Shown: positions 9,777 through 14,957 of the stretch, piece after piece
How positions within the stretch are numbered: the first letter of the stretch is position 1
Layout: the number at the start of each line of letters is the position of its first letter
Source: an uncultured Actinomycetes bacterium
GTDB lineage: Bacteria > Actinomycetota > UBA4738 > HRBIN12
Direction: 5' to 3'
NCBI GenBank assembly: GCA_963708985.1
Contig: CAVPUQ010000001.1
Location: 406,663 to 470,662, forward strand
Length of the DNA: 64,000 nucleotides
The notes under the pieces: generated by a model
What the model was told of the DNA's origin: nothing
Seen by the model: the letters and a program-made list of their open reading frames with translations, nothing else
Databases searched by the model: none
Position numbers and translations under genes: made by a program

Positions 9777-10745
9777 TCAGCCCTCGGCGGGCAGGAGCGA
9801 GGCATTCGGGCTCGGCGGGATGTTCTTCTTGGCGAGGAGCCCATCACCCGGATGTCGGCGGCGATCGCCTGCAGGGTTGCCTGGTCCAGGTTCACGATCG
9901 AGGTGTCGCCGGCCATCCCGGTCCCGCCCGGGAGCACGACGTTCTACGACCCGCTTCGGGTTCAGCGTCGATGCCGTGAAGGCGAGGCTCAGATCTCGTC
10001 GAGGGACAGGTCGGTCCGCATGCTCCGCAGCCCGGCGCCGACCCAGTCGAGTATGCGGCTCGGGTCGCTCGTGAACTCCTTGCGGAACTGCGCGAGCGCC
10101 GAGACGAGCAGCCGACCCTGGTTCTCCGAGCGCCCGAAGTCACCCTCGGGGAGCGCGTGGCGAGCACGGGCGAGCGCGAGCGCGTCGCGTCCCGAGAGCG
10201 TCTGCGTGCCGGCATCGATCTGTGCGTGCGCGTACCGGTCGTACACGTCGAACGGCACGTTCGACCGTCAGGCCGCCGATGTCGTTGATCATCGCCTGGA
10301 ACCCCTCGAACCATGTGAGCGCCCAGTAGTCGATCGTCACGCCCATCAGGCTCTCGACGGCGTCGACGACGAGGCTGGGGCCGCCGGCCGTCATCGTCGC
10401 GTTGATCTTGTTCGTTCCGTACCCGGGGATCGAGACCCACGAGTCCCGCGGGAAGCCGATGATCGTGGCCTTCGCCTTCGCGGGGTTGATCGAGACCAGA
10501 TGGATCGAGTCGGCTCGCTGACCCGCGATCTCCTCACCCGGGCGCGCGTCGCTGCCGAGCACGAGGATGAAGATCGGCTTCGAGCCGTCGAGCGTGGGCA
10601 CGTAGCCCGCGTGAGCTTGCTGCAGCTGGAAGAACGGCGCCGCTCCGGCCGGAGCGGTCCGGGGTGAGGTGCCGAGCACCGTGCCGGCGACCCAGGTCAC
10701 GAGCAGGATCGCGACGAGTGCGGCACGGCGCCGGGGGGCGGGCAT
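9777..10745 (-). CDS. LCP (LytR-CpsA-Psr) family protein (frameshifted)
   Basis: N-terminal TM, then FILVLGSDAR...RADSIHLV...FPRDSWV...KINA, ALALARARH...DFGRSENQ. Confidence 0.9.
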
Positions 10746-10942
10746 GGTTCGTGTGCTGGTCAAATCGGCCCTCAGGCTACCGGCGGGACGGTGGAGCAAC
10801 AACCATCGCGGTCAGGAACCGGCTTGGAAGACCGCGTCGGTGGTCGGGCGCTCGCGCTCCTCGAGCACGAGCGGCGAGCACGAGGGGCACCATGCTGCCG
10901 TCGCACGTCACGCTCTCGGTGCTCGGGAGGCGCGCGGTGGAC

Positions 10943-11686
10943 CTAGGCCGGGGAAGGAGATGCGGTCGTCGAGGGTCCGGGCGACGGAGCAGGGGGCTCG
11001 GCCGCTCGATCCCCGCGCTTCACGTCGAAGGCCGAGATCACCCACGATCCCGGGTCAGCGAGGAAGAGCTGGCCGTGACTCACGATCGTCGTATAGGTGC
11101 CGTCGGTCCGGGTGCCGAACGCGTAGAAGCGGAACTTCACGACCACCGAGGTCGGCGCGTCGTCCTGGTCGAACAGGACGTCGAACTCGAGGCTGCCCTT
11201 CGTCGGCTGGATCTGGTCGTAGACGTCCCCCGCGGTCGCGCCGGCGGTCAGGGTCTCGACGGCCTGCTGCGCCGAGCCCTTCGCGTCGTCCGCGAAGGCC
11301 TCCCACACCTGCGTGTAGTCGCCGTCCTTCCAGTTCTCCGGATCGAGGAACGCGGCCGTGAACAGGTCGTTGAGCATCGGCGTCAGCTGCTCACCGACGC
11401 TCGCCGCCTGCTGGGCGAGCGTCTCCTTGTCGGCCGAGTCGCTCGTCGCCACCGCGCGCGTCTTGCGGATCTTGAACTCCAGCGGCGCGATGGGAGGTGT
11501 GTCGTTGCCGCCATCGATGAAGGGGATCTTGCCGTCACCGCGGGTCAGGAAGAAGACGAGCCCCCCAGCCACGAGCACGAGGACGAGCGGGATGACGACG
11601 AGGGCGCCGGTGTTCCGTTTGCGGTGGCCGCCGCTCCGCGCAGGGCGGTTCGCCGGAACGGGAGGTTGCGGTCTGGTGTCGGTCAA
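10943..11686 (-). CDS. Hypothetical membrane-anchored protein with Pro/Ser/Thr-rich tail
   Basis: Intact ORF (10943-11725; TTG 11686 preferred). Basic stretch plus one TM (ALVVIPLVLVLVAGGLVFFL), alpha/beta-like body, tail PAPSPGPSTTASPSPA. Confidence 0.75.
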   Translation of the reverse strand: MTDTRPQPPVPANRPARSGGHRKRNTGALVVIPLVLVLVAGGLVFFLTRGDGKIPFIDGGNDTPPIAPLEFKIRKTRAVATSDSADKETLAQQAASVGEQLTPMLNDLFTAAFLDPENWKDGDYTQVWEAFADDAKGSAQQAVETLTAGATAGDVYDQIQPTKGSLEFDVLFDQDDAPTSVVVKFRFYAFGTRTDGTYTTIVSHGQLFLADPGSWVISAFDVKRGDRAAEPPAPSPGPSTTASPSPA

Positions 11687-11750
11687 AGCGTCGAGAGGGT
11701 AGCGTCCCGGTACGGACCGCAACAACCGACAGGGCTCTCACCAGGCCGGG

Positions 11751-11808
11751 TACCATGTCCTCTCGATCGAACGGTGTGCCGGGAAGCCTGGTCGGCGACG
11801 AGGGAGCG
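11751..11808 (+). promoter_or_regulatory. nhaA promoter (-10 TACCAT) and short structured 5' leader; candidate cis-regulatory RNA
   Basis: TACCAT 11751-11756; hairpin CCGGG-AAG-CCTGG 11779-11791; CTCTCG (11760-11765) can pair with CGAGGG (11799-11804) overlapping the RBS. Confidence 0.4.
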
Positions 11809-13190
11809 ATGGCGAACGATGCCGCCGGCCCCCCGGGCCTCGAGCCCGGTGTCCGGCAGCCGTGGTCCAGGTCCGAGCGACGGGTGCCCCGCGTCGTCCT
11901 GCAGCCCGTGCAGTCCTTCCTGCTGACCGAGGCCGCCGGCGGCGTCCTGCTGTTGATCGCGACGGCGATCGCGCTCGTGTGGGCGAACTCGCCGTGGGCT
12001 GCGTCCTACGACCGCCTGTGGCACACGGAGCTGACGATCGGGCTCGGGCGTTGGCACCTGTCGTACGACCTCGGCCACTGGGTCAGCGACGGGCTTGATG
12101 ACGCTGTTCTTCCTCGTCGTCGGTCTGGAGATCAAGCGCGAGATGCTCACGGGCGAGCTCCGCGATCCCCGGGCGGCGGCGGTCCCCGTCCTCGCGGCGA
12201 TCGGGGGCATGGTCGTGCCCGCCCTCCTGTTCGTGGTCGTGCCCGCGGGCGGGACCGACGCCCGCGGGCTGGGGGATCCCGATGGCGACCGACATCGCGT
12301 TCGCCGTCGGCATCCTCACGCTCGTCGCGCGCTCGGCACCGCCCGGCCTGAAGCCGTTCCTGCTCACGCTCGCGATCGTCGACGACATCGGGGCCATCCT
12401 CGTGATCGCGCTCTTCTACTCGGGGGGCGTGAGCGCGTCGCCGCTCCTGATCGCCGGCGCCGCGTGCGCCGCGATCGTGGTCCTCCAGCGCATCCACATC
12501 CGGGCGGCGTCGATGTACGTGCTGCTGGGCGTCGTCATCTGGATCGCGACCGCCGAGTCCGGGGTGCATCCGACGATCGCCGGCGTCGTGCTGGGGCTGC
12601 TCACCCCGGCCGTCCCGTTCCAGCGACCGAAGACCGTGAGCCTCGAGGCCCACCGCGTCGCGGACGAGACGGTCGACGACCCCACGCCGCCCGATGTCGA
12701 CGCTCCCTACTGGCTCTACCTGGCCGGGCTGTCACGCGAGGCGGTCTCGCCGCTCGCGCGCGTCGAGTCCCTGCTGCACCCGTGGGTGAGCTTCGTGATC
12801 GTGCCGCTGTTCGCGCTCGCGAACGCCGGAGTGGACCTGTCGGCGAGCGCGCTCAAAGACGCAGCGACCTCCCCGCTCGCGCTCGGGATCCTCCTCGGGC
12901 TCGTGGTCGGCAAGCCCCTCGGCATCACCCTCGCGACGTGGCTGGCGGTCCGCGGCGGTCTCGGCCGATTGCCGCTCGGCGCCGACTGGCGCCACGTCAT
13001 CGGCGTCGGCACGGTCGCCGGCATCGGGTTCACGATCTCGCTGCTGATCACGGATCTCGCGTTCGAGGGCTCCGCGCTCCTGCAGGCGGCGAAGGCCGGC
13101 ATCCTTGCGGCGTCGGTGTTGGCGGCCGTCGTCGGCGCGTTGATCCTCCGCGCGAGACCCGTCCGCGAGGCACGGACCCCTGGGGGTTAG
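11809..13190 (+). CDS. nhaA: Na+/H+ antiporter NhaA (frameshifts near 12095 and 12270)
   Basis: [72 protein letters not shown]. Confidence 0.95.
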
Positions 13191-13226
13191 GCTCCCCTCG
13201 AACCCATGCGGACGGAGGTAGCTCCG

Positions 13227-13673
13227 ATGAGAGCTCGGAACATCGCGAGCCGGCACTTCACCGTTGCGGCGGATGCGCCGGCTTCGGAAGCCGCCGGCAT
13301 CTTGTCCCGCCTGGACGTGCGCGCGGTGCTCGTCGTCCATGCCGACGGGCGGCTCGCCGGCGTCCTGTCCGACAGTCGCCTGCTGGCGACGCTGCTGCCC
13401 GACTACGTGGAGGAGGATGCCGTGCTCGCGCGCGTGCTCGAGGAGGACGCCGGCGAGTCCTTGTGGCGGCGGCTCGAGGGACGCACGGCCGCCGACCTCC
13501 TGGACTGGCACGAAGGGCCCCGTCCCGAGGTCGACGGCGATGCCCGGCTCATCGAGGTTGCCGCGATGATGGTCCGTACGCGGCTGTCGCTCGTCGGTGT
13601 CCGGGACGAGGGCCAGCTGATCGGCGGGATCTCGATCGACGATCTCCTCACCCATCTGTTGCGAGCTCGATGA
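13227..13673 (+). CDS. CBS domain-containing protein
   Basis: RBS GGAGG at 13214-13218. Two CBS-like repeats ([16 protein letters not shown]; [20 protein letters not shown]). ATGA overlap with the next gene. Confidence 0.85.
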
Positions 13674-14957
13674 ACGAGGTCATCGCGATCGTCGTCTTCG
13701 TCGGCGCGTACACGCTGATCGCGACCGAATGGGTCCACCGCGTCGTCGTAGCGCTGGCGGGCGCCGGACTGATGCTCCTGTTCCAGATCGTGGACGCTCG
13801 GGAAGCATTCAGCTCCGACCGGTTCGGCATCGACTGGAACGTCATCTTCCTGCTGCTCGGGATGATGGTCATCGTCGGGGTCCTGCGGCACACGGGTCTC
13901 TTCGAGTACCTGGCGATATGGGCGGCGAAGAAGGCGCGGGGCCGGCCGTACCGCGGTGCTCGCGCTCCTCGTCCTGATCACGGGGGTCGCGTCGGCGCTC
14001 CTGGACAACGTGACCACCGTGCTGCTCGTCGCACCGGTGACGGTGCTCATCTGCGAGCGCCTGGGCGTCCCGCCGGTTCCGTTCCTGATCGCCGAGGCGC
14101 TCGCCTCGAACATCGGCGGCACGGCCACGCTCGTCGGCGATCCGCCGAACATCATCATCGCGAGCGAGGCGGGCCTGTCCTACATCGACTTCCTGGTCAA
14201 CATCGGGCCGCTCGTCCTGATCCTGCTCGCGGTCTACCTCGGGATCGCCCGGTGGCAGTTCCGCGGCGCGCTCGAGTACCACGCGGAACGCGTCCGCGAG
14301 GTCATGAGCCTGGACGAGCGCGAGGCGCTCGTGCGAGGGCCGCTCCTCCCTCGCGCGCTCGCGGTGCTCGGTGTCGTGACGGCCGGGTTCCTGCTCCAGG
14401 AAGTACTCGGGTACGAGCCGGCGGTCGTCGCGCTCCTCGGCGGGGGGGTGCTGCTCCTGATCGCGCGCGAGGAGCCGACCGTGTACCTGCGCGAGGTGGA
14501 GTGGCACACGCTCGTGTTCTTCATGGGCCTGTTCATCATGGTCGGCGCCCTAGTGAAGGTCGGCGTCATCGACCGCCTGGCCGAGCGCGCGATCGGGCTG
14601 GTCGACGGCCATCTGTGGCTCGCGGTCGTGCTGCTGGTGTTGATCTCGGGGATCCTGTCGGGGATCGTCGACAACATCCCCTACGTGGCGACGATGGCGC
14701 CGCTCGTCGCGCAGCTCGCTCACTCGATCCCGGGCGACGCCGTCGTGCTGTGGTGGGCGCTCGCGATCGGGGCAGATCTAGGCGGCAACGCGACCTCGAT
14801 CGGCGCGAGCGCCAACGTCGTCGTGCTCGGTCTGTCCGAGCGCTCGGGTCACCGCATCCGCTTCGTCGAGTGGCTGCGGTACGGCGTGCCCGTCACGGCG
14901 ATCACGCTGGTGGTTTCGCTCGCGTACCTGTGGGTGCGGTACTTCCTGCTCGCCTGA
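13670..14957 (+). CDS. ArsB/NhaD/SLC13-family ion transporter (frameshift near 13950)
   Basis: [83 protein letters not shown]. Confidence 0.92.

Follow-up and report, generated by a model that had tools for sequence, protein, structure and literature searches.

The 64,000-nt stretch of DNA analysed here (the window; contig CAVPUQ010000001.1 of an uncultured Actinomycetes bacterium, positions 406,663 to 470,662) carries, just in front of an nhaA gene, a 25-nt leader element belonging to what is apparently an undescribed, phylum-wide and so far unannotated class of cis-acting RNA, which sits at or near the 5' end of cation-transporter mRNAs of Actinomycetota. We are highly confident that the element is a real, conserved and functional RNA element, and its best explanation in our view is a stress-responsive switch for cation transporters, to which we assign a probability of roughly 0.6. 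A previous reading made from the letters alone (the sequence-only reading) had placed a riboswitch-like leader here; a conserved, strand-specific cis element linked to cation transporters is indeed present, but the hairpin and the helix against the Shine-Dalgarno sequence (SD) drawn for that leader are not supported. The features of the leader and its gene are as follows.

11751-11756, + strand: -10-like hexamer TACCAT (TAnnnT), aligned with TAGGAT or TAGCAT in same-genus relatives
11773-11797, + strand: the leader element, positions G1 to G25, GGUGU GCCG GGAAGCCUGGU CGGC G, scoring 47 bits (E 3e-6) against our covariance model R1
11773-11776, + strand: single-stranded 5' tail GGNG, with G1, G2 and G4 invariant and N3 variable
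11778-11781, + strand: 5' strand of the stem, G6 C7 C8 G9, flanked by U5 (11777), which wobbles with G25 (11797)
11782-11792, + strand: 11-nt loop GGAAGNCUGGU (N = C here), in which N15 alone varies freely
11793-11796, + strand: 3' strand of the stem, C21 G22 G23 C24, which changes jointly with 11778-11781 in validated variants
11800-11806, + strand: SD-like GAGGGAG as read from the sequence, 2 nt before the ATG and kept in same-genus relatives
11809-13190, + strand: nhaA (PF06965), matched by the Pfam NhaA model in three reading frames

Within its own genome (2.96 Mb in 10 contigs, estimated completeness 73.7%), the segment 11773-11797 is the sole match to model R1, and the 19-mer core GCCGGGAAGNCTGGTCGGC is found in one exact copy. 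The element ends 3 nt before the nhaA SD, and the ATG follows 12 nt past C24. The window copy conforms to the extended consensus GGNGY-GCCG-GGAAGNCUGGU-CGGC-R, whose stem-general form reads GGNGY-[4-bp stem]-GGAAGNCUGGU-[stem]-R. Across 130 aligned copies, G1, G2, G4, the stem base G9 and the loop positions G10, G11, A12, A13, G14, C16, G18 and G19 are invariant, while U17>G (L211, L224) and U20>G (L228) are rare validated variants of the loop. No pairing partner was found for the GGNG tail, the presence of which tells true copies from chance near-matches. One near-copy with two mismatches was noted elsewhere in the same genome (G000:C8:295683-295701); its stem change is uncompensated, it lacks a -10 box and falls within an open frame, the model does not report it, and we take it to be a chance match.

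Conservation and covariation, which the sequence-only reading had named among its checks on other nhaA leaders, are both found across copies of the element. The block GGGAAGNCTGGTCGG stands upstream of the nhaA start in 22 of the 27 nhaA loci of relatives from the same order, conserved far better than the NhaA N-terminus. An exact-pattern scan with one genome per species located the exact core in at least 120 stretches of other genomes; the named taxa among the matches listed include Streptomyces, Nocardia, Mycobacterium, Arthrobacter, Microbacteriaceae and Pseudonocardiaceae as well as Acidimicrobiia, Gaiellales and Solirubrobacterales. All named exact-core matches listed are from Actinomycetota, bar one Chloroflexi-labelled metagenome-assembled genome (L062, JAKAIY010000074.1), in which the downstream open reading frame (ORF) has no Pfam match and which could reflect mis-binning or horizontal transfer. 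Of 151 genomes sampled across the phylum, 43 contain a match to model R1 (31 of 116 genera), at 1-7 copies each. The tallies for this model, for the nhaA-I search and for the mismatch search described below include the unpublished genomes G029, G037, G041, G057, G085, G118, G154, G181, G207, G259, G298 and G363; the canonical copies L164 (G154) and L189 (G181) are also within the 200-copy wobble and -10 sets and the ORF tally, and no covariation variant comes from an unpublished genome. In other actinobacterial genomes, several copies form divergent pairs some 170-330 bp apart, each copy heading a transporter operon (for example G156:C124:55470-55820, G129:C61:14966-15163 and G169:C116:3125-3336).

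The alternative pairing GCCG/CGGC is the one backed by covariation. Variants were collected with model R1 and, independently of structure, by a pattern search allowing up to two mismatches in 401 genomes, from which 150 of 568 near-matches were listed; a variant was accepted as a true copy only with both the GGNG tail and a -10 box. Pair 7-23 becomes U-A in three families (GUCG..CGAC; L207, L214, L215) and G-C in L210 (GGCG..CGCC), pair 6-24 becomes U-A in L209 and L217 (UCCG..CGGA), pair 8-22 becomes U-A in L216 (GCUG..CAGC), and pair 9-21 becomes G.U in L221 (GCCG..UGGC). The stem is paired in 100% of 488 cells (122 distinct rows), and three of the four stem pairs are changed on both sides, a level reached by 0 of 500 shuffles; among the matches listed, every near-match with an uncompensated stem falls within an ORF and has neither the tail nor the -10 box. 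Mutual information is greatest between positions 5 and 25 (0.51 bits, above every other column pair); in 200 copies they are U-G in 87, C-A in 60, A-A in 15, U-A in 11 and C-G in 3, and single genera, Streptomyces and Nocardia for example, contain both types of wobble. The U.G and C.A wobbles are isosteric as RNA, but their bases are not complementary in DNA. A riboswitch should be a conserved structured RNA with covariation; the element is one, and its structure is small.

The element also holds a characteristic place relative to the promoter. The end of a TAnnnT box lies 6-8 nt ahead of G1 in 117 of 200 copies, the distances peaking sharply at 7 nt, and this fixed short distance predicts that the element lies at the very 5' end of the mRNA in most lineages. 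In the window, TACCAT stands 16 nt upstream of G1, the gap being 12-17 nt in the window's family; its position predicts a transcription start near 11763-11765, which would put the element about 9 nt into the transcript. A member of the class is expected to have a cation-transporter gene about 10-100 nt behind it, as nhaA is here. The distance from C24 to the start codon has a median of about 30 nt, and such short leaders, of about 55 nt in total, bring the element within reach of an initiating ribosome.

The element is on the same strand as its downstream gene and always faces it. Most of the 189 downstream co-oriented ORFs examined encode transporters of Na+ or other cations: NhaA accounts for 104, PF00999 Na+/H+ exchangers (CPA1/2, some with TrkA_C) for 20, and the Na/Ca exchanger (Na_Ca_ex) and a NatA-like ABC ATPase for 6 each. 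Seven copies in other genomes precede a CBS-domain gene that is immediately followed, each time, by a CitMHS/ArsB/NhaD-like permease. The remainder comprises DUF2254 (8), NfeD (4), MrpA (3), SulP-STAS (2; L130 and L178), AA_permease_2 (2), PPDK-like genes (2), alpha/beta hydrolases (2), TrkH (1) and a CitMHS-like gene (1), together with 21 ORFs without a Pfam match or with a poor ORF call. Several non-homologous genes, namely NhaA, CPA1/2, Mrp, the Na/Ca exchanger, NatA-like ABC, NhaD-like and TrkH, are thereby gathered under one physiological theme. Upstream neighbours are heterogeneous, except for two lineage-specific syntenies, and no regulator gene consistently adjoining the element was found among the neighbours. 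The PPDK-like, alpha/beta hydrolase and NfeD associations have no obvious cation link; the PEP-synthase/PPDK-like genes lie behind the element at L127:175-2634 and L144:356-2854, the PPDK_N and PEP-utilizers domains being Pfam-confirmed in L127 only and L144 being assigned by N-terminal similarity. Just downstream of the nhaA of Blastococcus haudaquaticus we also observed the small RNA Ms_IGR-5 (RF02471, 83.5 bits; L055:7551-7801).

All motifs listed in the sequence-only reading are present: TACCAT (11751-11756), CGGTGTG (11772-11778), CCGGG/AAG/CCTGG (11779-11791), TCGGCGAC (11792-11799), GCCG (11778-81) facing CGGC (11793-96), the SD GAGGGAG (11800-06) and the ATG (11809), as is a 6-bp pairing, one G.U included, between CUCUCG (11760-65) and CGAGGG (11799-804). 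As isolated folds, its pairings exist but are no better than chance: the leader 11751-11825 has a minimum free energy of -25.3 kcal/mol against -26.1 +/- 3.0 for dinucleotide shuffles (z = +0.25), and a 161-nt fold gives z = +0.33. The proposed hairpin CCGGG-AAG-CCUGG does not covary and performs no differently from shuffles; in validated variants it is disrupted by G7, by G17 and where N15 is A or G. The 6-bp pairing against the SD fared no better, being not enriched in 19 relatives (mean z +0.13), lying partly upstream of the predicted transcription start and not being chosen by RNAalifold in 8 close relatives. Nearest-neighbour rules make the GCCG/CGGC hairpin itself weak: imposing it costs about 8 kcal/mol against the ensemble, and the competing CCGGG/CCUGG fold is 4.5 kcal/mol better in the window. 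A hairpin that is kept in evolution yet disfavoured thermodynamically fits the expectation for an aptamer, or a protein site, that owes its stability to the partner it binds.

We favour a stress-responsive switch; its regulatory role, its signal and its output mechanism are what we infer from these observations. The hairpin, weak alone, would become stable only once a signal of Na+, Li+ or alkaline stress stabilises it, the stabiliser being either a directly bound ion or small ligand, as in a riboswitch, or a dedicated RNA-binding factor. Hairpin formation may then alter translation initiation or the 5'-end-dependent stability of the transporter mRNA. That the hairpin itself is the sensor, a very small new riboswitch class binding Na+ or Li+ or reading alkaline pH, is a tentative proposal, to be taken seriously but short of an even chance; pH might be read, for example, via a protonation-dependent C.A+ wobble, which would stand in place of U.G in about 30% of copies. 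Such direct sensing, if real, would operate right at the 5' terminus of the mRNA in Streptomyces, Mycobacterium and the majority of other Actinomycetota.

Several observations weigh against the switch. The stem has just 4-5 pairs and its variants are rare, with 8 informative cells in 122 distinct rows, and some variants first came from a model with the stem built in. Across copies, we found no expression platform that recurs consistently. The predicted accessibility of the SD does not depend on the hairpin (0.44 with it, 0.47 without; 0.44 in a scrambled control), and complementarity between the 5' half of the element and the downstream leader is at chance by duplex energies (z -0.12); in the window, SD accessibility is 0.33 unconstrained and 0.37 with the hairpin forced. 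With duplex energies at chance and accessibility unchanged by forcing the hairpin or scrambling the motif, a switch acting by SD occlusion was rejected. Downstream of the element, CCGACC, the complement of G18-G23, is enriched (55 vs 11 of 200; 3'-half duplex z -0.68). As its pairing would be exclusive with the stem, a platform of alternative pairing is suggested for about a quarter of copies; the box is confined to that quarter, is not in this window and has no clean covariation. In L215 (G366:C3:283350-285020), the stem variant GGUCGAC is followed by its exact complement GUCGACC. Covariation between the CCGACC-type box downstream and the stem's 3' strand is thereby hinted at, but weakly, since GUCGACC is seen with the canonical stem as well.

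An RNA bound by a protein would account for these data too. In such a case the hairpin would serve as operator for an RNA-binding protein or a small RNA that acts in trans and is conserved in Actinomycetota; this factor would do the sensing of ion stress, and there would be no riboswitch but still a new cis-regulatory class. The invariant 11-nt loop and the GGNG tail, with no internal partner found, suit an outside factor, 25 nt is small for an ion aptamer, and no alternative-pairing platform is common to all copies. Yet the heterogeneous upstream neighbours offer no consistently adjacent regulator gene, no candidate protein is known, and the regulon, varied in its transporters yet coherent in function and with 1-7 copies in a genome, is of the type usual for riboswitches; we consider this explanation somewhat unlikely, though well worth keeping in view. 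The same stem is also an imperfect inverted repeat in DNA, GCCG-N11-CGGC, just downstream of the -10 box, through which a transcription factor might repress transporter promoters: compensatory changes would keep the palindrome too, the sole freely variable base, N15, is the centre of the 19-mer, and repressors commonly sit where this site does, over the predicted start point. Against a DNA operator, positions 5/25 are T/G or C/A in 147 of 200 copies and complementary in few (T/A 11, C/G 3), which is RNA wobble geometry; the half-sites differ at 3 of 9 positions, an asymmetry invariant across the phylum; the GGNG extension is conserved on one side and the orientation to the gene is fixed; the G.U variant of L221 is tolerated; and the complementary CCGACC is enriched at variable downstream distance, with no adjacent regulator gene found. 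The covariation of stem and 5/25 wobble, the fixed strand, the one-sided tail and the asymmetric invariant loop together make a DNA operator improbable.

Two further explanations carry very little weight. Membership of the element in one of the known classes Li+-I (nhaA-I), Li+-II (nhaA-II) or Na+-I (DUF1646), as a divergent representative, draws on the same kind of gene association, with nhaA and other Na+ transporters (PMC9646797, PMC5737381); it is very improbable, given no Rfam match in the window, in 41 relatives (nhaA-I) or at 18 plus 2 other loci, and given that those RNAs have two hairpins over about 55 positions and the element is a single 25-nt hairpin. That the leader is an ordinary one, its listed pairings being chance features of a GC-rich 5' untranslated region (UTR), agrees with fold energies equal to shuffles and with an SD pairing conserved no more than chance, but is hardly credible: the 19-mer is identical across classes of a phylum while the flanks and the protein N-terminus diverge, and the covariation at the stem and at 5/25 already contradicts it.

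Other readings of the motif were tried and rejected. A leaderless upstream ORF starting from GUG (G2-G4) fails on two counts: in about 30% of copies N3 is C, A or G, and N15, a variable base, would fall at the second position of a codon. A two-tier G-quadruplex built of the GG tracts is contradicted by G22 and G23, which are replaced by A or C in concert with their partners in the stem. An ECF-type (extracytoplasmic function) promoter with GGGAAG as -35 has no conserved -10 after it, and a housekeeping-type -10 lies upstream at fixed distance.

We compared the element with known systems. A cmscan of 11500-12000 with all 4227 families of Rfam 15 at E<=10 gave three chance hits only and none to nhaA-I, nhaA-II or DUF1646, as the sequence-only reading had suspected; a scan of the window at gathering thresholds likewise detected nothing at the element. 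The best nhaA-I (RF03057) score in the 41 relatives was 31.5 bits, below the 37-bit cut-off and located elsewhere, with none at the nhaA loci; at the element itself, Rfam returned nothing in the 18 other loci at gathering threshold or in the 2 SulP loci L130 and L178 at E<=0.1. None of the genomes searched contained the known riboswitch classes for Na+ and Li+. The literature searched yielded neither the motif sequence nor a riboswitch linked to DUF2254 or to nhaA of actinobacteria, and the surveys of 26 and of 50 genomes by the Breaker lab list no nhaA or antiporter motif of such kind.

Like Li+-I (nhaA-I, RF03057) and Li+-II (nhaA-II) (Weinberg et al. 2017, PMC5737381; White et al. 2022, PMC9646797), the element is a short conserved RNA in an nhaA 5' UTR. 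Both Li+ classes, built of two hairpins (P1/P2 in Li+-I) across some 55 positions and validated with proteobacterial representatives (PMC9646797), are believed to control the access of ribosomes; they answer a toxic alkali cation by inducing an exporter, a response that we propose here as well. In contrast to them, the element has no similarity in sequence or structure, consists of one 4-5-bp hairpin of 25 nt, is actinobacterial and has a regulon far broader than nhaA. With the Na+-I riboswitch, that is, the DUF1646 motif (White et al. 2022, PMC9337991), it shares a mixture of non-homologous Na+-linked transporters (NhaA-like antiporters, ATP-driven Na+ exporters) and the possibility of several copies per genome. 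DUF1646 RNAs generally precede predicted transcription terminators (PMC5737381); the element, unlike them, does not match the Rfam model and has no evident terminator here, its leaders being about 55 nt long. Published accounts of nhaA-I, nhaA-II and DUF1646 give them other architectures and place them in phyla other than this one (PMC9646797, PMC5737381). The orphan riboswitch candidate dauA, upstream of Streptomyces SulP-STAS genes (Narunsky et al. 2024, PMC11109978), is described as a junction of three stems that takes in the SD, is confined to 57 sequences from Streptomyces and has been proposed to sense sulfate (PMC11109978). Since the two element copies L130 and L178 precede SulP-STAS genes, dauA and the element may share leaders. 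Guanidine-II (mini-ykkC) and preQ1-I, hairpins of 16-34 nt with invariant loops, are complete ligand sensors acting on translation; the analogy with the element is in size only, as loops, ligands and gene sets are unrelated.

To our knowledge, how Actinomycetota sense sodium, lithium and alkaline stress is largely unknown, in a phylum that includes Streptomyces, Mycobacterium, Nocardia and the abundant soil and freshwater Acidimicrobiia. A single 25-nt element at the head of NhaA, Mrp, CPA, NatAB-like and NhaD-like operons would mark out the phylum's regulon for cation stress and would offer a very small natural sensor for study and engineering. It would also be a simple annotation marker for transporters that lack an assignment, such as DUF2254, NfeD and the pairs of CBS gene and permease.

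The window itself contains such a pair behind nhaA.

13206-13673, + strand: CBS-domain gene (PF00571, E 2e-15), beginning 15 nt past the nhaA stop
13613-14957, + strand: CitMHS/ArsB/NhaD-like permease (PF03600), with one frame break near 13955

One copy of the element thus probably heads an operon of nhaA, the CBS gene and the NhaD-like permease. The nhaA start ATG at 11809 is common to all same-genus relatives. The gene is read in three frames because of exactly two single-base insertions relative to the two same-genus orthologues L005 and L006, an extra G at 12097 and an extra C at 12269, and the NhaA profile is accordingly covered in three pieces by the Pfam search (2-62, 63-119 and 124-374). 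These frame breaks are probably long-read assembly errors rather than decay, and several broken neighbours fit an indel-rich assembly: the permease, whose PF03600 match is split between two frames (profile 1-77 and 79-336) near 13955; an H+-PPase at about 15650, in which PF03030 is matched only up to profile position 137 of 645 before the frame ends; and a LytR_cpsA_psr (LCP) gene at 10140-10802. On the other side of the leader, a divergent gene on the minus strand (10943-11725) encodes a 260-residue membrane-anchored protein without a Pfam match, which is syntenic upstream of nhaA in 19 same-order relatives; its TTG start region is conserved (ACAACC on the + strand), and about 83 nt are left for the two divergent promoters.

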